A stretch of 64,000 bases of DNA, taken from positions 8,769 to 72,768 of the forward strand of contig JBIIDM010000001.1 in the NCBI GenBank assembly GCA_044238365.1. Direction: 5' to 3'. This DNA comes from Bdellovibrionota bacterium (GTDB lineage Bacteria; Bdellovibrionota_C; UBA2361; JBIIDM01). The position numbers and the translations under genes are program-made. Shown in pieces: positions 25,399-62,072 of the stretch. Numbering within the stretch: position 1 is the stretch's first letter; the number at the start of each line of letters is the position of its first letter. The notes under the pieces were generated by a model. It saw only the letters and a program-made list of their open reading frames with translations. It searched no databases and was not told the DNA's origin.

Positions 25399-26577
25399 AT
25401 GTTAGCTAGATTAATAACCAGTCGTATAAATTCAACATTTTCTAGTATTCTCCTTACAGGGCCTCGACAGGTAGGAAAATCTACGCTCCTTAGATCATTA
25501 AAACCAGATCTAGAGGTAAATCTCGCGGATCAGGGAGTTTTTATTCGACATTCCAAAGATCCCGAACTCATTCGAAAGTTAGTACTAGCTCTACCAAAAG
25601 GCTCGACCATATTACTTGACGAGGCTCAACGACTACCAGAAATTCTCAATACAATACAAGTATTAATCGATTCTGAAGGGTATCGATTTCTTGTAACCGG
25701 CTCTAGTGCAAAGAAATTGCACAGAGGCAAAGCAAATTTACTACCAGGTCGACTAATCAGTGAATATCTAGACCCACTCTCATATCTTGAGGTCGGAAAA
25801 GACAACTTTGACCTCGCCAGAGCACTGCGCTTTGGAATGCTTCCAGGCATATTTTTGAATAAAGATGAGGGGGGGAGGATCTTAGATAGTTATGTTGACT
25901 TATATCTTCGTGAAGAGATTCAAGCCGAGGGATTAGTCCGATCTTTAGGGAGTTATGCCAGATTCTTGGAACTTGTAGCTATAACAAGTGGGCAGTGGCT
26001 AAACTATTCGAAAATTAGTTCAGATAGTGAAATTCCAAAAGAGACTATTCGGAATTTTACGAGCGTTCTTGAGGAAACGTTATTGCTGTTTAGGATCAGC
26101 TCGTTTCAAATCAGCAAAAAATTTACTCAAAAGTCCCAAACTCGTAAGGTCCAACAAAAGGAAAAAGTTTTATTGTTTGATGTTGGGGTAAGAAACTCCC
26201 TGTTACGAATTGGAGGCAACGAAGTGCCTCTCCATGACGTTGGATCAGTATTTGAGCAGTGGATGATTCTACAAATCATCTATCTAAATCGAGCTCTTAA
26301 TAAGAAATGGAAAGTTTCATCCTTCCTTGATAGTAATGGCTTGGAAGTCGACTGTGTCATTGAAACCGAAAATGAGCTACTTGGTATAGAAATTAAGTCT
26401 GGTACGAAATATAGATCAGACTGGATAGTGGGGCTGAATTGCTTTGTTGAATATGTTGGTACAGTAAAGCCCGTAAAGAAGTTTATAGCCTATACCGGTG
26501 ATGATGTTCAGAAACTTGATGATCAGACTATGGTTTATCCGTATTCTTTGTTGCTTGAAGTGCTTTTTCAATATTGA
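25399..26577 (+). CDS. AAA-family ATPase (AAA_14 + DUF4143 architecture).
   Basis: Walker A LLTGPRQVGKSTLL and Walker B-like ILLDEAQRLPE are present. The C-terminal region is typical of DUF4143 proteins. Confidence 0.7.
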   Translation: MLARLITSRINSTFSSILLTGPRQVGKSTLLRSLKPDLEVNLADQGVFIRHSKDPELIRKLVLALPKGSTILLDEAQRLPEILNTIQVLIDSEGYRFLVTGSSAKKLHRGKANLLPGRLISEYLDPLSYLEVGKDNFDLARALRFGMLPGIFLNKDEGGRILDSYVDLYLREEIQAEGLVRSLGSYARFLELVAITSGQWLNYSKISSDSEIPKETIRNFTSVLEETLLLFRISSFQISKKFTQKSQTRKVQQKEKVLLFDVGVRNSLLRIGGNEVPLHDVGSVFEQWMILQIIYLNRALNKKWKVSSFLDSNGLEVDCVIETENELLGIEIKSGTKYRSDWIVGLNCFVEYVGTVKPVKKFIAYTGDDVQKLDDQTMVYPYSLLLEVLFQY

Positions 26578-46557: not shown

Positions 46558-49032
<2,475 letters not shown>

Positions 49033-50214: not shown

Positions 50215-51324
50215 TTACTCAATTCTTATCGGCATTACCATGGCTATTGAGTGTTCATCATCGCAAGGGTAGAATCTGGCTGGCTCATTTCCATTCAATA
50301 TTTCAATAACGATCTTTTCTGATATCAAAAACGAGCTAACAACATCTATAAGGAACCGAGCATTGAAACCAACACTGATTGGTTCATCGGTACCAACAAT
50401 GACCAACCGTTCTTCACTCTCTCCAAGCTCTGGACTACGGCTTGATATTCGCATGCTATCCTCTGCGATGTCGACCCTTACCCCCTGCCCCTGAGAGGCA
50501 AGGATAAGCGAAACACGGCGCAATGCGTCAGAGAACTCCTGGACCAGGATTTCAATCTTGACTCCTGAGGACTTGGGAAAAGCCCGAGCATAATCGGGAT
50601 AATCAACATCCATAAGACGAAGCGCAAACTTTGAGGAATCACTCTTAAAAACGACAAACCCCCCTCCGAATCCAACTTCAACCTCTTTAAGATGACCATC
50701 GTCAAAAACTCTACGTAGTTCAGAAAGGCCTCTTTTAGGGAAAAGCACCCTATGCCCAAGCCGCAAATCGGGGATATCTCTAGTTGAAAGCGCAAATCTA
50801 TGTCCGTCAGTGGCAACCATAGTTACCCTTCCATCGGAAGTCGGTTCAAAACAAATACCACTCAAATTAAACTTAGCCTCATCATGAGAAGCCGCATAGA
50901 TAGTTCTGTTGATCATTTCAGCAAAAATACGGCAATCGATCTTCCGATCTGTCACCAGGTCTAATCCCGGAATTTTTGGAAACTCAAGAGCGCCCAGCAC
51001 ATTCAATTTATATTTGGTGGTATTAGATTTAATTTCAAGCTTTTTTGCGTCCGAGAGTGAAAGATTCATCAAGCCTGTCGGCAGCTGGCGAACAACATCG
51101 GCAAACATCTTTCCGGGGACTGAAAATGTAGCTGATTGCTTTACTTCGGCAGGTACTTGCATAGAAACAGAAACTTCCAGATCCGTCCCCGACACTTCTA
51201 TTTGCCCATTATCTATCCGCACTAAAAAATAAGACATAATCACAAGAGGAGATTTTTTGCCTATAAATGCCTGGAGTGTATTCAAGGCCTTCGACAAATC
51301 ATCCTGCTGAACGACACACGACAT
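50215..51324 (-). CDS. dnaN: DNA polymerase III beta sliding clamp.
   Basis: 369 aa with a three-domain beta-clamp pattern. It lies directly downstream of dnaA. Confidence 0.9.
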   Translation of the reverse strand: MSCVVQQDDLSKALNTLQAFIGKKSPLVIMSYFLVRIDNGQIEVSGTDLEVSVSMQVPAEVKQSATFSVPGKMFADVVRQLPTGLMNLSLSDAKKLEIKSNTTKYKLNVLGALEFPKIPGLDLVTDRKIDCRIFAEMINRTIYAASHDEAKFNLSGICFEPTSDGRVTMVATDGHRFALSTRDIPDLRLGHRVLFPKRGLSELRRVFDDGHLKEVEVGFGGGFVVFKSDSSKFALRLMDVDYPDYARAFPKSSGVKIEILVQEFSDALRRVSLILASQGQGVRVDIAEDSMRISSRSPELGESEERLVIVGTDEPISVGFNARFLIDVVSSFLISEKIVIEILNGNEPARFYPCDDEHSIAMVMPIRIE

Positions 51325-51637
51325 AAAAGACTCCTATATCTAGATTAAATATATATATTCATAGTAGTAGTAGTAGTTAGGTGTGGTTTCTGTTGATAGA
51401 CTGCCTAACTAATTGAAACAGTAGAACTTCCCAGGCTCGGTTGTTGTGGTTTTTAGCTTGGCGTATTCCCGGGTTATGCCCACAAAAGCATTTTGTGGAC
51501 TATCTAGATATAGATAGTCCACAGGTAGTGCGTAGGTTTTCCACAGGAATTACCGGAAAAAACATAAAAAAATCAACAAGATGGCTCCGTTGATAACAAA
51601 ACCACCGCTTGCGACAATCTAAAATCAGAAACATTCT
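51325..51637. promoter_or_regulatory. Candidate oriC in the dnaA-dnaN intergenic region.
   Basis: DnaA-box-like 9-mers were read directly: TTTTCCACA at 51537-51545, and the inverted pair TGTGGACTA (51494-51502) / TAGTCCACA (51515-51523) around a TCTAGA core. An AT-rich stretch taaatatatatattcatagtagtagtagtag (51345-51376) could act as an unwinding element. Gene orientation and plus-strand G+T richness switch around this locus. Confidence 0.55.
51362..51376. repeat. (TAG)5 trinucleotide microsatellite within the candidate origin.
   Basis: tagtagtagtagtag was read directly. Confidence 0.9.
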
Positions 51638-53194
51638 CTAGCTGAAAAGTTTCCTTTCTATTTCGGAGACAAGTTCTCTCACAGAAGCCTCGTCGCTGAC
51701 CTTGTTTGCGACGACACTCGCGGCGTGGATTACGCTGGAGTGGTCTCGTCCGCCAAATTTTTCGCCAATCTCGGGGTAGGAAGCTGTTGTATGTTTCCTG
51801 CAGAGGTACATGGCTACATGTCGAGGAAACGAGAGATTTTTTGTCCGTCGTTTAGATATTATTTCTGACACTTTGATTGAGAAGTGTTGTGCTACCGCCT
51901 TCTTGATGTCCTCTATGTTGACTGATATTTTTTTCGGTTCTAGTAGGGGTTTGAGGGCCACTTGGGCCATTTGCAGCGTAATTGGAACCTTCTGCAGGCT
52001 GCTAACGGCATGCAATCTGGTTAGTGCTCCCTCTAATTCCCTAACGTTTGAGGAGATATTCTCGGCTATAAGGTATGCAACGTCCTCGGGAAGGTGAAAG
52101 TTCTCAAGGAGAGCTTTGCGTTTAAGAATTGCAGCTCTAGTCTCAAAATCTGGCGCTTGCAGATCCGCCGTTAAGCCCCAGGCAAAGCGGGTCTGAAGCC
52201 GCTCTTCAATTCCATCAATTTCGGAAGGAATTTTGTCAGAAGTCATTACGATCTGACGCTTGCAACTATAAAGGGCGTTAAACGTGTGGAAGAACTCTTC
52301 CTGGGTTCTTTCCTTTCCGCTTATGAACTGAATGTCGTCAATAAGGAGTATCTCAATGCTTCGTAGCCTTGTCTTGAATTCCTCCATTTTTGCGTTCCGA
52401 AGCGCCTGAATGAGCTCATTCGTAAAGGCCTCAGAAGAAATATAAAGCACTTTCGAGTTGGGGTTTCGGCTGAGAGCGGCATTTCCAATCGAGTGTAGAA
52501 GGTGTGTTTTGCCAAGCCCTACGCCGCCGTAGATAAATAGAGGGTTGTAGCTTTCACCTGGTTGTTCAGCGACTCTACAGGCAGCGGCGTTACAGAATTG
52601 ATTGTTGCTTCCAACTACAAAGCTTTGAAAGGTGTATTTGGGGTTTAGGTTGTTGAAAGTGTGGTGATCGTTTGGCGTACTGGTAGATTCGACGGGCTCG
52701 GCGGTGGGACTGGCGTGGCGTCGTTTTATAACGGTTCGAGATGATCCATCAAGTTGGCTTGCTAGTAGCGATTCATTTGGTGCCTTTGGTTCCTGAACAA
52801 CGTACGTGAGAATCAAGTTGGGAACGTTAAGCAATTCCTTAAGAAGCGTTTCTATTCGCCGGGAGTAGTTTCGCTCTATAAGTTGGCACTGAAGTTTTGT
52901 CGGCGCAGAGATTGTTAGGGCTGTTTCGTCAAATTCCCTTACGTCACCTTCTGTAAGTTCAACGATTAGCGGTTCGAAGTATGCGGAAAAGGCATGTTGA
53001 CCTACTTCGGTCTTAATCACCTCCAACATGTCATTCCATGCGTTTACTACTAATCCTTCGTGAATGGGTTCTCGGACAAAAGGTACGCCGTTTTGAAGTT
53101 GGTTGTAGGTGGTGTTCTCTCTAGTTGTGTTTTTGGTTGTGTCACTAGTAGTTGACTGGGTTGTTGATAAAAATAAATCTGGCGCAATATTCAT
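51638..53194 (-). CDS. dnaA: Chromosomal replication initiator DnaA.
   Basis: The AAA+ Walker A is GGVGLGKTHLLHSIG. The C-terminal DNA-binding domain carries GGRDHSSVIHA. The N-terminus has a T/N-rich low-complexity ~50-aa extension before domain I. Confidence 0.95.
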   Translation of the reverse strand: MNIAPDLFLSTTQSTTSDTTKNTTRENTTYNQLQNGVPFVREPIHEGLVVNAWNDMLEVIKTEVGQHAFSAYFEPLIVELTEGDVREFDETALTISAPTKLQCQLIERNYSRRIETLLKELLNVPNLILTYVVQEPKAPNESLLASQLDGSSRTVIKRRHASPTAEPVESTSTPNDHHTFNNLNPKYTFQSFVVGSNNQFCNAAACRVAEQPGESYNPLFIYGGVGLGKTHLLHSIGNAALSRNPNSKVLYISSEAFTNELIQALRNAKMEEFKTRLRSIEILLIDDIQFISGKERTQEEFFHTFNALYSCKRQIVMTSDKIPSEIDGIEERLQTRFAWGLTADLQAPDFETRAAILKRKALLENFHLPEDVAYLIAENISSNVRELEGALTRLHAVSSLQKVPITLQMAQVALKPLLEPKKISVNIEDIKKAVAQHFSIKVSEIISKRRTKNLSFPRHVAMYLCRKHTTASYPEIGEKFGGRDHSSVIHAASVVANKVSDEASVRELVSEIERKLFS

Positions 53195-53614
53195 CTAGAA
53201 ACCAAAAAAAGACGAAAAAGAGAGCATCGGTTCAGTTAGATAGGACTAGTGGAGAGTAGCGAAACCTTAGCAATTTACAACAGTAATATCTAGATAAAAT
53301 CTAGACTAGCGGCTTTAATCTAGTAATATTATAAGGTTGGTTGGTTATTTTTTTTTCTTAGTAAAAGTTAGATAAACTAGATAACGTTTTTCGTTGGCCT
53401 GGAGTGGCTGTGGCAGGGGCGGGGCTTGGGCTTTGATGGGCATTTTAGATGGGGGTGAAATCTAATCGGAGGCTGTGCGGGTTTTGTTCAAGAGGAGCGA
53501 CTCCCGCGTGTGGGTTGATATTAGATATGGCCAAACGCGAATGCGTGGGCCAGCTATTAGGAGTCCCTTCGTGTGTTCTAATTTCAAGGGTCTAGCCCGC
53601 TCCCGTGAGTCTTT

Positions 53615-54322
53615 CTACTGGCTTGTTACTTCAAAGATAGAGTGGTCGCTTAGTAGGTATTTGCGTTCAAATGGGCTTAGATAGTCGGTTCGGGGGGTGA
53701 GCGGTGTAAGTTTGTGGGGTAGGTTGTGGGTGGCAAGAGCAACCGAAAACTCAAGCGCGTAGATTCTCCAGTTGGTTCTTAGGGTGATCGACTCGCTGAT
53801 ATGCAGTAGAGTTGGAAAGATGGGGTGAGCATGCCATCTTCGTTTTATATGTTTCTTTTTGGGCCAGGGGTTTGGGTACAATATATAGGTGTCGCATCTA
53901 AGGTTGTGTTCAGCTAGACTACTCCAGACGTCCTCACATCTCTGTTGGGTAATCAGAAGATTAACCGGAAGAGACGGTTTTTGTTTGGATAATCTATGAG
54001 CTGATTTATCAAAACCCACGATAAATTTGTCGGGATAGGCTTTAGCTAGAGCGACTGAGCTCTCACCGGTACCGCAACCCGAATCTAAGATAATAGGTAT
54101 TCGCAGCCGACGCACCTCATCTAAGCAGCTGTTTAGATGGACAAGTTCCGCGCTCTTTTTGATTTGTTTTAAGTATTTGAATTCACTATATTTATTTACC
54201 AAATTTTCCAAATCAGGGTGTACTGAAACTTGATTTGACGTTACCGGGTTGCTGTTACCAAGAGCAGGGGCGTCTTGACGGGCTGTCCGTGTTGTTGCAG
54301 GACTATTTTCGGGTGTGTTCAT
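53615..54322 (-). CDS. trmB: tRNA (guanine46-N7)-methyltransferase.
   Basis: The SAM motif is ILDSGCGTGESSVALA. The TrmB motif is YILYPNPWPKKKHIKRRW. Confidence 0.8.
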   Translation of the reverse strand: MNTPENSPATTRTARQDAPALGNSNPVTSNQVSVHPDLENLVNKYSEFKYLKQIKKSAELVHLNSCLDEVRRLRIPIILDSGCGTGESSVALAKAYPDKFIVGFDKSAHRLSKQKPSLPVNLLITQQRCEDVWSSLAEHNLRCDTYILYPNPWPKKKHIKRRWHAHPIFPTLLHISESITLRTNWRIYALEFSVALATHNLPHKLTPLTPRTDYLSPFERKYLLSDHSIFEVTSQ

Positions 54323-55150
54323 GAGAGTTGTGAATTGTGGTGTGTTGATGCTGAGCTGAATAGGGCAGAGAGTATAACGATAGTTTTATGTGAGTCAAAA
54401 TTCCAAAATACCCCAATAGTGATGTGTTGGTGTGTTATAAAGAGCATGGTTGTTTTTATTTCATGCTTTCGTTTATGGATTTGTCATGATGTTGCTGTCA
54501 GTCAAATCGTGAGTATGTGCGTTGGTAATCGTGAGAAACCGTTTGTGGAAGAAAGCTTCAGTCTAACAGTCTTAATTTGCGGTGTTTTATTCGCCATTGG
54601 TTCAGTGTTAGTGGTGTATGTTATAGACTGTTTTGCGGTGCCCTTGTCAATCGGTCCTAGGTCGGTCGGAAGGTTTTTTGTTGATCTTAGGATTTCGTAT
54701 AATCTAAAGCGATGCACCGAGCGTATGGGTCATGTTCATCCCGGCAGTAAGGTAGATTGGGGAGCTCTTGTGTTTGTTCAGAAGTCGGTAGTTGGATCTG
54801 AGATAGAAATTAGATGTCGGGATCACAATTTGGCCGTAATTGAATTGATGTTAACGTACTACGCGGGTGATTTGGAGTCCCTTAAGCTGGTCGATTCATT
54901 AGGCGAGCTGCTGAGCGAACGGCGATCAACATTATCCTTACTTGGCGAAATCGTTCGTTCTCACGGGGCAATACTTGGAAGAGTGAGATCAAAGGGCAAG
55001 TCCGCGCCTGGTTGGGTAAAGTCGGGGTTTGGCAAGCGAGAAGAGGAGCTGCGCAATGATTTAAGCAGCAATGCTCTTGAGATTAATAGAATTACTTCAA
55101 AACTTCGGGAGCGAATTTCCGGGCCACGTTCACAGGAGGTGATTCAGTAA
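54275..55150 (+). CDS. Hypothetical membrane-anchored coiled-coil protein (start uncertain).
   Basis: The long open frame crosses a GT-rich segment, and its 5' part overlaps trmB. The likely start is an internal Met at ~54428-54520. A TM segment LTVLICGVLFAIGSVLVVYVI and a charged helical C-terminus are present. No motif identified. Confidence 0.3.
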   Translation: MTGCPCCCRTIFGCVHESCELWCVDAELNRAESITIVLCESKFQNTPIVMCWCVIKSMVVFISCFRLWICHDVAVSQIVSMCVGNREKPFVEESFSLTVLICGVLFAIGSVLVVYVIDCFAVPLSIGPRSVGRFFVDLRISYNLKRCTERMGHVHPGSKVDWGALVFVQKSVVGSEIEIRCRDHNLAVIELMLTYYAGDLESLKLVDSLGELLSERRSTLSLLGEIVRSHGAILGRVRSKGKSAPGWVKSGFGKREEELRNDLSSNALEINRITSKLRERISGPRSQEVIQ

Positions 55151-58496: not shown

Positions 58497-61400
58497 TTAG
58501 GCTGCGTCTTCGAGTTGAAGAGAGGGAACTTCTGAGATAATCGAAGATATCTTTTGTAAGTTTATTAGAACTCCGTCATCTGGTTTTATCGTTAAGCGTT
58601 CCGATATCAGGAGGTTAAGACGCTCCTGAAAGCCTTCCAGCTCCTGGAGTGTCGTATTTATTGAAGCTGCCATTCTAGTGCTTGTGGGTACGCTGTCTGC
58701 CAAATTCTGGATTTTTCGATATTGCGGTTTTAGATATTTATCCCTAAGTGTTTTTAAGACAAAAGGTGTAAACAAGTGTCCGTAAGTGAGAGCTTTAAAA
58801 GATTGCTTTGGTCCACTACACAACTCCCAGTAGATAGGCCGCTTTCCGTACGTCTTTGCGTGTTCCTTAAAAAAATCCTTGAAGAAATAGTTTCGTAAGA
58901 TATTTTCGGCATCCTCGACCTGCGATGTATAACCCGCGCTGAAGAGTCGTTGGGAAAGGTAGTTTAGATTTTTATTTAGGTTTTTTTTGCCATAAGTAAG
59001 GCCAAGGAACACCTTAAATAACTCATACAAATCTCGTGAGGAATCAGAATCAGCATCTTTCGAAAGTAGGACCAGAGAATCCTTCGGACTGCAAGGGTGA
59101 GCTCCAGGCGAATCCTGAATGCCAACCATGTCGAGCTTATATCTACCTAGAATAACCCCAACACCATAGGAGATTAGTCGCTTGACGCAGTCAACTTCTG
59201 ACCAGACCGGGTACGTCGAGGTGCTTCCTTCTGACTCAGACTCCTTTGGTTCAGGTAGTCCAAAGGCTTGTGTGAATATTAGATTGTTCTTGTTTTCGAT
59301 TGATTCAAGCTTCGTTCGTTGGGATTTTCGCATTTCCAGAAAGCTTCTGATGGAATCTTCCAGAGAGATGCTCTTTTCTTTCGGAATAAAGGGCAGCCTT
59401 AGGAATGTCCAGTTTTCTTCGTGGTGCGACATCTCCTCTTTCATTATCTCAACGGCCCGCTCGAAAAGGGGTTTCAGCTTTGGTTGCAATGGCTCTAGGC
59501 CTTTTGCTGGCACCGGTAGGGATGAGATATTTCCCGTCTGGAAATGAAGAGTAGGATTTATCGCTTTTATAAATTTTTCGGCTACCTTACTGCAAAGGTA
59601 GCAGCAGACCGCCTCGAAAACGTCATCCGATGGAAAGATCCCCGATCCGGAAATATCACTGATAAACCCGTAAGGGAGGTATCGTGCTCCAAAGTGACTC
59701 GAACTTACATCCGACCAGGTAACGCATCTTCTAAATTGAAATGCAGGATCACCCAGAGTTCCCTTTGAAGTCTTCCGTAGAGTATGCAAAAATTCAGATA
59801 TTTCTTGGCCGTCATTTTCAAAGTTGATTACATAATGGTGGTTGCCATACCATTGACGGTATTTTCCTCCTTTGTTGTAGGGGAACCATTTTTTACCCGA
59901 TAGGGCAGCTTCTTTTCGAGAAGTACACTCAAAGGCGATCGATTCTTGTGATACTTCAAACCACCGTCGTATAAAGCGCGCATTATTTGAGGTCTGTATC
60001 CCCACGCGTGTAGGATATTTATCACCCAAAAGCGAGTTTTCCCTAAAGGCATCAAAGGCCGCATCTTCGAGCCAGAATGATAGGGGCTTTTCCGGGAGCG
60101 CGTTAAAGTCTTTGTTCGAGCGGAAGTATAGCCAACCACATTCCGGATAGGTAATTGCTTCAATTACTTTGGGTGATTGTACGTCTCTTCCCTTAAAAGG
60201 TTCCAGATTGATGAACACCCCTTTAAAATCTTCAATTCGCTTTTTCTGTAGAGTGAAGGTGCAAATAGGGACGGTAGCGCCATCAAATGCTGAGTACTGA
60301 AGCTTTATAAGTGATGTTATTGTTGTGTTATTTAATACAAAGTCTCTAAGGTTGCGGTACGAAGTGATGAACATCCAAACAAATGGACTCATAAACCCAA
60401 TATGCCCATCATCCTTTGTAAGTTGCCAGTTTCTGATAATAAAAGCAGAGAACATATCTCGGCTGTAAGCCGCATAGTTCGCGTTTAGGTAGCTTCTTAA
60501 ATCATCGGGATAGTATTTCGAACTTAGGTAGGGTGGGTTTGCAAGGACGCAGTCGTATTGAGAGCACAATAGCAGGGCTCGAAGTACCAGTTGCATTAGA
60601 GCGAGAGCATGTTTTCGGGCCGAGGCGTCTTTGGTAGCTATTACGTGATTTAGGAAGTGCACAGCCGTTGTTAGCAATATTTGTTCATGTGCGGGTACAA
60701 TAGTAAGGGACCCCAGTGATGATGCATTTGAAAAATAAGCAGCAAACCGGATAAAGTCATCTTTGCTGATAGACTCAACTATCTGCCCGTTCTCAACACA
60801 GCTGGGGACTCCATAGCGGGTTTTGCCTTTAAATCGACTTACCGTTTCGCTATCTTTTGGGAGGATTTCAGTACAGGCTGCGTTGATCTGAGCTTTGTCG
60901 ACACTCTCTAGCGAGTAAATGTGAGGCACCGGAGTGTCAAAACCATTCAAAATCTTCGGATTGTCTATTCGGGCTCGCATTAGTAAGGCAAAGCTGGCCA
61001 TTTGGGCAGCTCGCTCATCGATATCAAGACCATAGAGGTTTGAATTTAAGATTTTACCCGCGATTTCGGATGGTGAATAGCCCATTTCAAGATACATATC
61101 TTTTAGTGTATCAAAGGCTTCTACAAGAATATGACCTGAACCGCAGGCTGGGTCAAGGATTGTAAGGTTTTCGGGGTTAAGGGGATCTAATTGAGATTTT
61201 GTCCCTTTGGAGCGCTTACTCGTTAGATTTTGCTCGGAAAATTCCGGCATAAGATATTCCCAACGGCTCTTAAGGACCGGTGACCGGTGTGAGCCTAGCC
61301 AGGTTTTTCCGAGGGTGTTCTGGACAAGATAGCGGACAATCCAGCGGGGAGTAAACAGCTGGGTGGCAGCCGGAATATCGCCGGGTTCGAGTTTTTTTCC

Positions 61401-62072
61401 AGTGAGCTCGCGCTTTCTTTGCGCGATATAGTACTGGTAGAGCCAGCCAATGATTTCCACCCCCTCTAACCAATCGGATTCGGGTATTGAAACGACTAAG
61501 TCTCCGATCAAAGACTCTTCTCCAAGAAGAGTGTTCGGTAGCAGGGAGGAAAGCGCTAGTGTTATCTCTTCAAAAAGAAACGGCATAGCACCGTGTAGCT
61601 CGTTACACTGGGAGATAAGAAGAGTTCTAAATATGCTTTCGTTCGACTTTCCCGTTGCTACCATTTCCTTGAGTTGAATAATGTCCCCTGCGTGTGGAAA
61701 TTTCGCGACTTTTTTTGATAATACGCGGAGATTGCTTAGGCTAGGGTCAGTTGCATGGCTCAGGATCTGATGAGAAAGGAAGCCATGAACCTCCATGTAC
61801 CGAAGGGCTACGAGGCGGTTGAACCAAGTATATGAGGTTCGTTCGATTACATCATTGAATGAGTGTGCAGAGAAGAGTTGGGTGAGTTCTTCAAGTATGA
61901 GAGTACACTCATCTTCGGTATAAAATCCGGTAGATTTAAGGACCTTCGATGCCTTTTCAGAAGGGCGAGACCGTTTCGGAGAGAATCCGAGTGAATTTGC
62001 CCGAGAGGCGATAGCTTCGGTGAAGTTTTCTCGAGCTTTGACCGCATATTTTTTTAAGGGTTTAATATTCAT
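58497..62072 (-). CDS. Large PglX-like N6-adenine DNA methyltransferase (BREX PglX / type IIG family), with no partner BREX genes in the window.
   Basis: 1191 aa. The N-terminal KKYAVKARENF ... SYTWFNRLVALRYMEV block matches what I recall of PglX-family N-termini. SAM motif I is ILDPACGSGHILVEAF and catalytic motif IV is VLANPPY. A long C-terminal region follows. No brxA/B/C, pglZ or brxL is nearby. Confidence 0.7.
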   Translation of the reverse strand: MNIKPLKKYAVKARENFTEAIASRANSLGFSPKRSRPSEKASKVLKSTGFYTEDECTLILEELTQLFSAHSFNDVIERTSYTWFNRLVALRYMEVHGFLSHQILSHATDPSLSNLRVLSKKVAKFPHAGDIIQLKEMVATGKSNESIFRTLLISQCNELHGAMPFLFEEITLALSSLLPNTLLGEESLIGDLVVSIPESDWLEGVEIIGWLYQYYIAQRKRELTGKKLEPGDIPAATQLFTPRWIVRYLVQNTLGKTWLGSHRSPVLKSRWEYLMPEFSEQNLTSKRSKGTKSQLDPLNPENLTILDPACGSGHILVEAFDTLKDMYLEMGYSPSEIAGKILNSNLYGLDIDERAAQMASFALLMRARIDNPKILNGFDTPVPHIYSLESVDKAQINAACTEILPKDSETVSRFKGKTRYGVPSCVENGQIVESISKDDFIRFAAYFSNASSLGSLTIVPAHEQILLTTAVHFLNHVIATKDASARKHALALMQLVLRALLLCSQYDCVLANPPYLSSKYYPDDLRSYLNANYAAYSRDMFSAFIIRNWQLTKDDGHIGFMSPFVWMFITSYRNLRDFVLNNTTITSLIKLQYSAFDGATVPICTFTLQKKRIEDFKGVFINLEPFKGRDVQSPKVIEAITYPECGWLYFRSNKDFNALPEKPLSFWLEDAAFDAFRENSLLGDKYPTRVGIQTSNNARFIRRWFEVSQESIAFECTSRKEAALSGKKWFPYNKGGKYRQWYGNHHYVINFENDGQEISEFLHTLRKTSKGTLGDPAFQFRRCVTWSDVSSSHFGARYLPYGFISDISGSGIFPSDDVFEAVCCYLCSKVAEKFIKAINPTLHFQTGNISSLPVPAKGLEPLQPKLKPLFERAVEIMKEEMSHHEENWTFLRLPFIPKEKSISLEDSIRSFLEMRKSQRTKLESIENKNNLIFTQAFGLPEPKESESEGSTSTYPVWSEVDCVKRLISYGVGVILGRYKLDMVGIQDSPGAHPCSPKDSLVLLSKDADSDSSRDLYELFKVFLGLTYGKKNLNKNLNYLSQRLFSAGYTSQVEDAENILRNYFFKDFFKEHAKTYGKRPIYWELCSGPKQSFKALTYGHLFTPFVLKTLRDKYLKPQYRKIQNLADSVPTSTRMAASINTTLQELEGFQERLNLLISERLTIKPDDGVLINLQKISSIISEVPSLQLEDAA

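Follow-up and report, generated by a model that had tools for sequence, protein, structure and literature searches.

A conserved palindrome array at the putative dnaA promoter and the origin of uncultured Bdellovibrio-like bacteria: candidate recognition sites for a factor other than DnaA

In a stretch of 64,000 nucleotides from the genome of a Bdellovibrionota bacterium (contig JBIIDM010000001.1; the whole stretch is called the window in the following), the gene dnaA is accompanied on both sides by a dense cluster of the tetramer CTAG. The unit that is actually enriched there is the palindrome (W)ATCTAGAT(W) together with NTAGAT half-sites, the first base of which follows the order C > T ~ A, and since CTAG is the centre of the palindrome ATCTAGAT, its own accumulation is a by-product. 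The copies of this unit keep their places on the putative dnaA promoter and in the replication origin throughout a narrow subclade of relatives and are missing from its sister lineages. We give about an even chance to the interpretation that the cluster constitutes an array of recognition sites for a predicted sequence-specific factor that would bind duplex DNA and would be distinct from DnaA.

The clustering itself is real. All CTAG positions that the initial annotation had listed upstream of dnaA (53195, 53246, 53290, 53301, 53306, 53320, 53377, and 53592) and all positions of TCTAGA (53194, 53289, 53300, 51339, and 51503) were correct upon recounting in the window, and with seven CTAG in 190 bp the cluster is the densest of the 64 kb, a density that was reached in only about 2 of 10,000 random placements of 123 points. 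The latter number is the total of CTAG in the window (1 per 520 bp), which is lower than the 194 expected from dinucleotide-preserving shuffles. For comparison between gene classes, non-coding DNA was defined as window DNA not covered by long open reading frames (ORFs), which gives 733 nt for the two dnaA flanks and 11,153 nt for all other non-coding DNA. On this basis, CTAG occurs at 13.6 per kb in the dnaA flanks versus 2.15 per kb in the other DNA outside ORFs and 1.7 per kb in coding DNA, and the enrichment suspected earlier is thus borne out within the window. Three of the copies (53246, 53306, and 53592) are situated outside the conserved motif, and two of these (53246 and 53306) are missing in the closest relative, L001.

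With respect to the recurring unit, the initial annotation had pointed to CTAG, TCTAGA, and TAGATAA; iterated repeats are indeed present, but their unit is ATCTAGAT / NTAGAT, neither CTAG nor TAGATAA. This became apparent when, for the dnaA flanks of five lineages, every 6-, 7-, and 8-mer was counted without preselection: ATCTAG, ATCTAGA, AATCTAGA, and ATCTAGAT ranked at the top with 37–114 times the window background, while the DnaA box TCCACA (10-fold) and the trio sequence CTACTAC (32-fold) ranked lower. Altogether, the approximately 4 kb of dnaA flanks from these five lineages contain 17 exact copies of ATCTAGAT, with A/T on each side. In the pooled flanks, CTAGAT is enriched 34-fold (48 in 4,038 nt versus 33 in 95,862 nt), TTAGAT 6.4-fold, ATAGAT 6-fold, and GTAGAT 1.3-fold, as compared to 4.7-fold for CTAG as a whole. 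Such a graded first-base preference (C > T ~ A >> G) looks more like protein binding than like a strict enzyme site. In the window alone, the exact palindrome occurs three times in 64 kb (51338, 51502, and 53288), in all cases beside dnaA and against a Markov-3 expectation of 0.6, and 7 of the 32 window matches with one mismatch fall within the same 2 kb around the gene. The half-sites ATCTAR/YTAGAT are similarly concentrated, with 15 of them in the two dnaA flanks (733 nt) versus 10 in the 11,153 nt of other non-coding DNA.

For comparative analysis, dnaA loci were taken from the lineages with the most similar DnaA proteins, namely L001 (86 % identity), L002/L003 (69 %), L004 (67 %), and L005 (71 %), and a sixth lineage (L173/L174) was reached via its TrmB protein. 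The expectation of the initial annotation that the motif should recur at the origins of related species holds, as at least four further lineages (DnaA 67–86 % identical) carry it in the corresponding places. Its bearers represent a small group of uncultured Bdellovibrio-like bacteria; DnaA relatives at about 60 % identity stem from metagenome-assembled genomes that are labelled 'Bdellovibrionales bacterium' or 'Pseudomonadota bacterium'. Upstream of dnaA, the following elements can be distinguished in the window:

53253..53280, minus strand: inferred dnaA promoter, with −35 TTGTAA (53280..53275), a 16-nt spacer, and −10 TACTCT (53258..53253)
53288..53295: site C, the palindrome ATCTAGAT as an exact match, ending 7 nt upstream of the −35, centre near −45.5
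53299..53306: second copy, ATCTAGAC, a direct repeat (spacing 11), lying 11 bp further upstream than site C and centred near −56.5
53318..53325: site B, ATCTAGTA, reading ttaCTAGATtaa on the dnaA strand, centre near −75.5; kept in L001, L002, and L174
53368..53384: site A, TTAGATAAACTAGATAA, a pair of half-sites at a distance of 9 bp (about −125 and −134) with a conserved A-tract behind it
53236..53241: half-site TTAGAT just downstream of the −10 (about +8), reading ATCTAAC on the dnaA strand
53445..53526: three distal half-sites (TTAGAT at 53445, ATCTAA at 53460, TTAGAT at 53521) in the non-alignable part of the spacer
53193..53200: ATCTAGAA, overlapping the dnaA start codon (CAT, 53192–53194); kept only in L001

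In the alignment of four lineages, the invariant blocks are ATCTAGAT, TTGTAAATT, GGTTTCG.TA, and the A-tract. The TTGTAA block was taken as the dnaA promoter because of its invariance and because it has a counterpart in the sister lineages, TTGTAA-N16-TA(C/A)(T/C)CT of the subclade being found in the same place as TTGTAA-N16-TATAAC of the sisters; we infer a transcription start near 53246. A simple sigma-70 scan of the window did not call this conserved promoter with its −10 TACTCT. The −10 reads TATAAC in motif-less sisters (L089, L098, L110, and L166), and TACTCT, TAATCT, or TACCCT, all of them weaker, in the motif-bearing lineages.

Site C displays sequence properties expected of a promoter operator, as it is a perfect palindrome of 8 bp that always lies 7 nt from TTGTAA and remains invariant in the window, L001, L002, and L004, while the linker of 7 nt differs from one to the next (ATTACTG, ATTGGTG, AGTGCCA, and GTGGCGG, respectively). 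The second copy (53299..53306) is found in L001 and L004 and is degenerate in L002. Site A is identical in L001, takes the form ATCTAGtttATCTAG in L173/L174, and is partly kept in L002 and L004. The half-site ATCTAA behind the −10 is present in L001, L002, and L004 and is doubled at a spacing of 10 bp in L001 and L004. By comparison, ATCTAGAA at the start of dnaA may be an incidental TAG-ATG junction. Overall, the 215 bp adjoining dnaA (53195–53408) are about 93 % identical to L001, with only 65 % identity for the neighbouring TrmB protein, and the rest of the dnaA-trmB spacer (53409–53614) cannot be aligned between the two. Within this latter part, three half-sites in 206 nt compare with 0.2–0.3 expected from the other non-coding DNA (about 0.09 per 100 nt), and the corresponding unalignable stretch of L001 contains four. 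Because the unalignable parts of both genomes each keep three to four copies, the distal half-sites appear to turn over while being maintained under selection.

On the other side of dnaA, the sites lie in what is by its features a chromosomal origin of the dnaA-dnaN type. The genes gyrB (46558–49023), recF, dnaN (50215–51324), dnaA (51638–53194), and the gene of a TrmB-like tRNA methyltransferase (53615–54322) are all encoded on the minus strand, the minimum of the cumulative GC skew (about 51.1–51.8 kb) corresponds to the dnaA-dnaN spacer, and this spacer combines the skew switch with DnaA boxes, a trio array, and an AT-rich element:

51325..51637, minus strand: oriC proper, with DnaA boxes, trio array, and AT-rich DNA in a layout common to the sister loci inspected
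51494–51499, 51518–51523, and 51540–51545: DnaA boxes in oriC (TGTGGA, TCCACA, and TCCACA, respectively)
51362–51376: DnaA-trio array (TAG)5, beside the degenerate box GGTGTGGTTTC
51346–51361: AT-rich DNA (unwinding element), just before dnaN
51550–51562: element TTTTTTCCGGTAA, 3–5 nt from a TGTGGA box
51502..51509: ATCTAGAT adjoining the DnaA boxes, centre of a 13-nt inverted repeat, TGTGGACTATCTA / TAGATAGTCCACA (51494–51523)
51338..51345: ATCTAGAT, with the AT-rich element on one side and the dnaN Shine-Dalgarno sequence GGAGT (51334..51330) on the other
51617..51622: half-site ATCTAA right after the dnaA stop codon; kept in L001

The ATCTAGAT copies in oriC hold their position in most of the five lineages. 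The arrangement TGTGGA-(1–2 nt)-ATCTA..ATCTAGAT is found in the window, L001, and L004, and with a degenerate box in L002; the dnaN-proximal palindrome has an equally placed counterpart in L001, L004, and L005 (two copies in the last), with only a half-site in L002. Element TTTTTTCCGGTAA is kept, apart from small differences, in each of the five lineages of the subclade as well as in most of the sister loci inspected. The initial annotation had placed both TCTAGA of this spacer inside a DnaA-box inverted repeat, which is right for 51503 (repeat 51494–51523) but not for 51339, which sits outside that repeat, between the AT-rich element and the Shine-Dalgarno sequence of dnaN. A scan had flagged the inverted repeat as terminator-like, a candidate that was rejected since the repeat is not conserved in relatives and its T-run is poor. 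Observed by hand, the dnaN-proximal palindrome has its TAG in the same 3-nt register as the DnaA-trio array 21 nt away (region 51341–51376), and this register is also seen in L001, but not consistently in L004 and L005. Neither Rfam families nor tRNA genes were found on scanning the window.

The phyletic range of the motif is narrow. When metagenomes were scanned with a DnaA peptide specific for the clade, 80 loci were obtained, none of which has ATCTAGAT next to dnaA. In the 28 sister loci with complete flanks, neither half-sites (0.78 per kb in the flanks versus 0.53 per kb elsewhere) nor CTAG (2.15 versus 1.84 per kb) are enriched. The TTGTAA promoter and the AT-rich element are nevertheless common to the sister loci inspected, as are the trio array and the TTTTCCGGTAA-TGTGGA element, and the C-terminal segment of DnaA (domain IV, residues 440–500) is almost identical in close homologues of both clades. 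As the sisters thus possess the same layout and the same DnaA segment without the motif, the latter is best understood as a recent, lineage-specific addition to a conserved origin and promoter. L166–L168, which had been chosen as possible bearers for their high partial DnaA identity, turned out to belong to the motif-less lineages. A contig scan with the full DnaA alignment, for which generic peptides (YNPLFIYG and LLIDDIQF) were selected, yielded, among the matches listed, identities of at most 53 %, which are unusable for footprinting.

Some further observations concern the surroundings of these sites. The recF-gyrB spacer was considered as an additional target; it has a single half-site in the window, and the relatives have none there. 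Within the trmB-like gene, four ATCTAA/TTAGAT half-sites are found in less than 250 bp of coding sequence (53896–54140), the second-densest half-site cluster of the window, which may be either an extension of the array or due to chance. The second-densest cluster of CTAG (25406–25771, six in about 400 bp) lies within the gene of an AAA_14/DUF4143 ATPase (25399–26577); it is without ATCTAGAT and seems unrelated. At the 5' end of dnaA (53029–53194), public gene calls differ, giving proteins of either 463 or 518 amino acids (aa). Trp53 is invariant in 18 homologues and precedes the short start, and the long N-terminus is kept in L001, for which reasons the start of the 518-aa protein at 53194 is more likely; it has no obvious Shine-Dalgarno sequence.

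How might such an array function? The initial annotation had suggested iterated binding sites for an origin-associated factor, and this part of its proposal is the best fit to the top rank of the k-mers, the fixed positions, and the variable linkers, whereas the CtrA- and SeqA-like regulators that it named do not fit, the DnaA-box dialect is weak, and its suggestion of methylation is a possible alternative (see below). Presumably, the factor would read the compact palindrome WATCTAGATW as well as single NTAGAT units. At the promoter, it would be served by the sites near −45.5, −56.5, −75.5, −125/−134, and +8 as well as by the further half-sites upstream, and two strategic places would serve it in the origin, one immediately adjoining a DnaA box and the other, beside dnaN, bordering the AT-rich unwinding element. 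Since sites are present at promoter and origin alike, one and the same factor could conceivably set the transcription of dnaA and at the same time permit or block the unwinding of the origin, in the manner of CtrA, Spo0A, MtrA, AdpA, or HP1021 in other bacteria. The sequences directly show the motif with its enrichment, fixed geometry, conservation, and confinement to one subclade; binding by a protein, its non-identity with DnaA, and the sign of the regulation are all deduced from this pattern: the sites downstream of the −10 and beside the unwinding element suggest repression, and the weaker −10 hexamers of the motif-bearing lineages suggest dependence on an activator. The unit of 8 bp is used singly, in tandem (with steps of 8, 9, 10, or 11 bp), and in both orientations, and it resembles the operators of ribbon-helix-helix proteins more than a classical long helix-turn-helix operator.

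A number of points weigh against a dedicated binding factor. No candidate binding protein was found in the window, as TrmB, a membrane/coiled-coil ORF, RluA, and TrxB are without a DNA-binding domain, and a palindrome of 8 bp is short for a helix-turn-helix dimer. The motif is carried by only five or six lineages, all of them from metagenomes, and the promoter as well as its start site are deduced from conservation only. Moreover, a methylation site fits the same data, CTAGAT on both strands being exactly ATCTAGAT, and TTATCTAGA agrees with the DnaA-box consensus at 7 of 9 positions.

The membrane/coiled-coil ORF deserves a brief description. Beside trmB, and divergent from it in every motif-bearing lineage seen, a protein of about 196–200 aa without a Pfam or NCBIfam match is encoded (window 54275–55150, plus strand; L176 4356–4958; L171 31–621). 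The 291-aa ORF of the window (54275–55150) probably starts downstream of the listed TTG. This conserved ORF was considered as a DNA binder and rejected because, by eye, it is of the membrane/coiled-coil type with a hydrophobic N-terminus and an otherwise helical-looking sequence.

DnaA boxes occur in the dnaA promoters of many bacteria, and the sites could accordingly be weak or variant boxes that recruit ATP-DnaA in a cooperative manner, both for autoregulation of dnaA and as a second, upstream component of a bipartite origin. TT or AT precedes several copies, as in TTATCTAGA with its 7 of 9 matches to TTATCCACA, one copy adjoins a canonical box in each oriC, the upstream pair of L004 is even fused to box halves (TCCACATCTAGAT..ATCTAGATGTGG), and no canonical DnaA box is found upstream of dnaA in the window. 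However, TTATCTAGA has T instead of C at position 6 and G instead of C at position 8, and both mismatches thus lie within the CACA core (positions 6–9), which is invariant both in TTWTNCACA and in the Bdellovibrio bacteriovorus consensus NN(A/T)TCCACA (PMC5124646). The perfect conservation of an 8-bp palindrome is also atypical of low-affinity boxes, the GC-skew minimum and the DnaA-trio array are confined to the dnaA-dnaN spacer, and the sisters, which have a nearly identical domain IV segment and the same TGTGGA boxes, possess no such sites. The variant DnaA-box dialect that had been put forward initially is therefore weak, given that TCTAGA mismatches the TCCACA core, that canonical boxes coexist in the spacer, and that the sisters lack the motif, and we consider a role of the sites as DnaA boxes improbable. 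Still far less credit is due to the assumption that the cluster has no specific function at all and simply reflects AT-rich composition, a stop-codon-free tolerance of CTAG outside genes, or DNA structure (flexible TA steps or a cruciform). While CTAG is somewhat commoner in non-coding than in coding DNA (2.15 versus 1.7 per kb) and relatives do not keep the 13-nt inverted repeat of the window (51494–51523) as such, the other non-coding segments of the window all stay well below the CTAG density of the dnaA flanks, the positions of the sites are fixed across lineages while neighbouring bases vary, and the 28 sister loci of similar composition are without enrichment. These comparative data largely exclude an origin in composition or structure.

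Methylation offers another explanation. A PglX-type N6-adenine methyltransferase encoded 5 kb away would mark the adenine at the fifth position of (C/Y)TAGAT, and a reader protein or DnaA would sense hemimethylation. We regard such a methylation-linked switch as possible though rather unlikely; it is compatible with a reader protein. As ATCTAGAT is the minimal sequence that carries the asymmetric site on both strands, both daughter duplexes would be hemimethylated after replication. The genes concerned are the following:

58497–62072, minus strand: PglX-like gene, 1191 aa, scoring 994 bits with the BREX-1 PglX model (cut-off 500)
L176 1–1233 and L177 2758–6330: PglX homologues in the L004 lineage

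The PglX-like protein keeps the motifs DPACGSG and NPPY intact, and along its entire length it also matches the PADLOC PglX and type IIG models. Its gene is solitary, positioned between atpB and an HhH-GPD gene without BREX partners, and in neither the window nor L177 is it encoded together with BrxA/B/C, PglZ, and BrxL, as PglX would be in a BREX system. The order HhH-GPD-PglX-atpB-atpE-trxB-rluA-orf-trmB-dnaA is also found in the L004 lineage (L176/L177), the most distant bearer (DnaA 67 %), and the PglX homologues are 90, 82, 64, and 56 % identical before values drop to 42–39 % for canonical BREX PglX, graded identities that argue for vertical inheritance within about the same small clade as the motif. 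An orphan, vertically inherited methyltransferase of the defence type is unusual. Characterised PglX enzymes recognise asymmetric sites of 6 bp whose fifth base becomes N6-methyladenine (m6A), an example from Acinetobacter being GTAG(m6A)T (PMC9122589). CTAGAT has this format, as do about one quarter of all hexamers, and the specificity cannot be read from the sequence of the enzyme. On the other hand, the PglX of Acinetobacter alone did not methylate but required BrxA, BrxB, BrxC, and PglZ (PMC9122589), and the enrichment of TTAGAT and ATAGAT as well as the W flanks are looser or wider than a typical enzyme site. In the test for genome-wide avoidance, CTAGAT outside the dnaA flanks was mildly and non-significantly depleted (10 versus 15–17 expected). 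It should also be considered that any clade-specific gene would co-occur with the motif, and the co-occurrence of PglX was seen in the two lineages checked. We are more doubtful still about the full evolutionary scenario, according to which PglX was left without its partners in defence and turned into a housekeeping enzyme, passed on vertically, with the target (C/Y)TAGAT, doubled into ATCTAGAT at oriC and the dnaA promoter. If true, this would amount to a hemimethylation clock for initiation akin to Dam/SeqA or CcrM that originated from an enzyme of a defence system, and with PglX as the writer of the mark, this would be the first example of an enzyme of the BREX family being drawn into the control of the cell cycle.

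Turning back to a binding factor other than DnaA, the CtrA- and SeqA-like regulators named in the initial annotation find no counterpart in the sequence. CtrA can be discarded, as TTAA-N7-TTAA is absent from both dnaA flanks, and the same holds for SeqA, with no GATC in the 733 nt of these flanks where about 2.7 would be expected from the window rate. Sites for CcrM are not in excess either (4 GANTC in the 733 nt versus about 3.1 expected). An IHF site (WATCAANNNNTTR) was also considered and rejected: by eye, it fits one of the three exact window sites with one mismatch, and its TTR arm is absent from the other two. Among the five papers that a literature search on ATCTAGAT as a binding site brought up, none concerns replication origins, judging by title and abstract.

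The control of replication start is largely unknown outside a few model bacteria. For Bdellovibrio-like bacteria, which include predators that must hold replication off in one stage of life, no initiation regulator turned up in the literature examined. The array described here provides a precise, conserved cis-element with defined positions on the putative dnaA promoter and the origin and thus a ready probe for assays.

Regulators of the origin other than DnaA are well established in model organisms, namely CtrA in Caulobacter crescentus, Spo0A in Bacillus subtilis, MtrA in mycobacteria, AdpA in Streptomyces, and HP1021 in Helicobacter pylori. The present sites are similar in that copies of a short non-DnaA motif are found at a DnaA box, at the unwinding element, and at the promoter on the side of the origin, an arrangement that points to a regulator to which the start of replication would be coupled. 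They differ in that the motif is unrelated, consists of a compact 8-bp palindrome and units of 5–6 bp, and belongs to an uncultured Bdellovibrio-like lineage. In Escherichia coli, SeqA binds clusters of GATC at oriC and the dnaA promoter in a manner linked to Dam, and in Caulobacter, CcrM acts at GANTC. Likewise, a short palindrome that is ordinary or rare across the genome is concentrated here at the origin and the dnaA promoter, and a conserved solitary adenine methyltransferase is encoded; in contrast to Dam and CcrM, however, the candidate enzyme is a BREX-type PglX of 1191 aa from a family with asymmetric sites and partner proteins. The recognition site GTAGAT of a BREX PglX resembles CTAGAT as a 6-bp sequence with adenine at position 5 that differs at the first base only, but the sites described here are mostly doubled into a palindrome and clustered at one locus, and GTAGAT is not enriched (1.3-fold). 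As regards ribbon-helix-helix proteins, MetJ binds met boxes of 8 bp, Arc binds TAGA subsites, and omega binds heptads. The array appears to share with such operators the partly palindromic units of 7–8 bp, the tandem arrangement with variable spacing, and the use of both orientations across a promoter, although this is a resemblance only and no ribbon-helix-helix gene was identified.

A further reference is the oriC of B. bacteriovorus, for which the dnaA-dnaN spacer with NN(A/T)TCCACA boxes and four DnaA-trios was determined experimentally (Makowski et al. 2016, PMC5124646). The likeness extends to the dnaA-dnaN-recF-gyrB cluster, to boxes of the TCCACA type in the dnaA-dnaN spacer, and to a trio array that is set off from a box by G+C-rich bases and followed by AT-rich DNA. 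A search of this paper by term returned no mention of a palindrome or promoter. In contrast to B. bacteriovorus, trmB rather than rpmH-rnpA is located upstream here, and the motif is limited to a narrow subclade. Summed up, a non-DnaA motif common to the origin and the dnaA promoter is known from model bacteria, while this particular motif, its geometry, and the clade that carries it are new.

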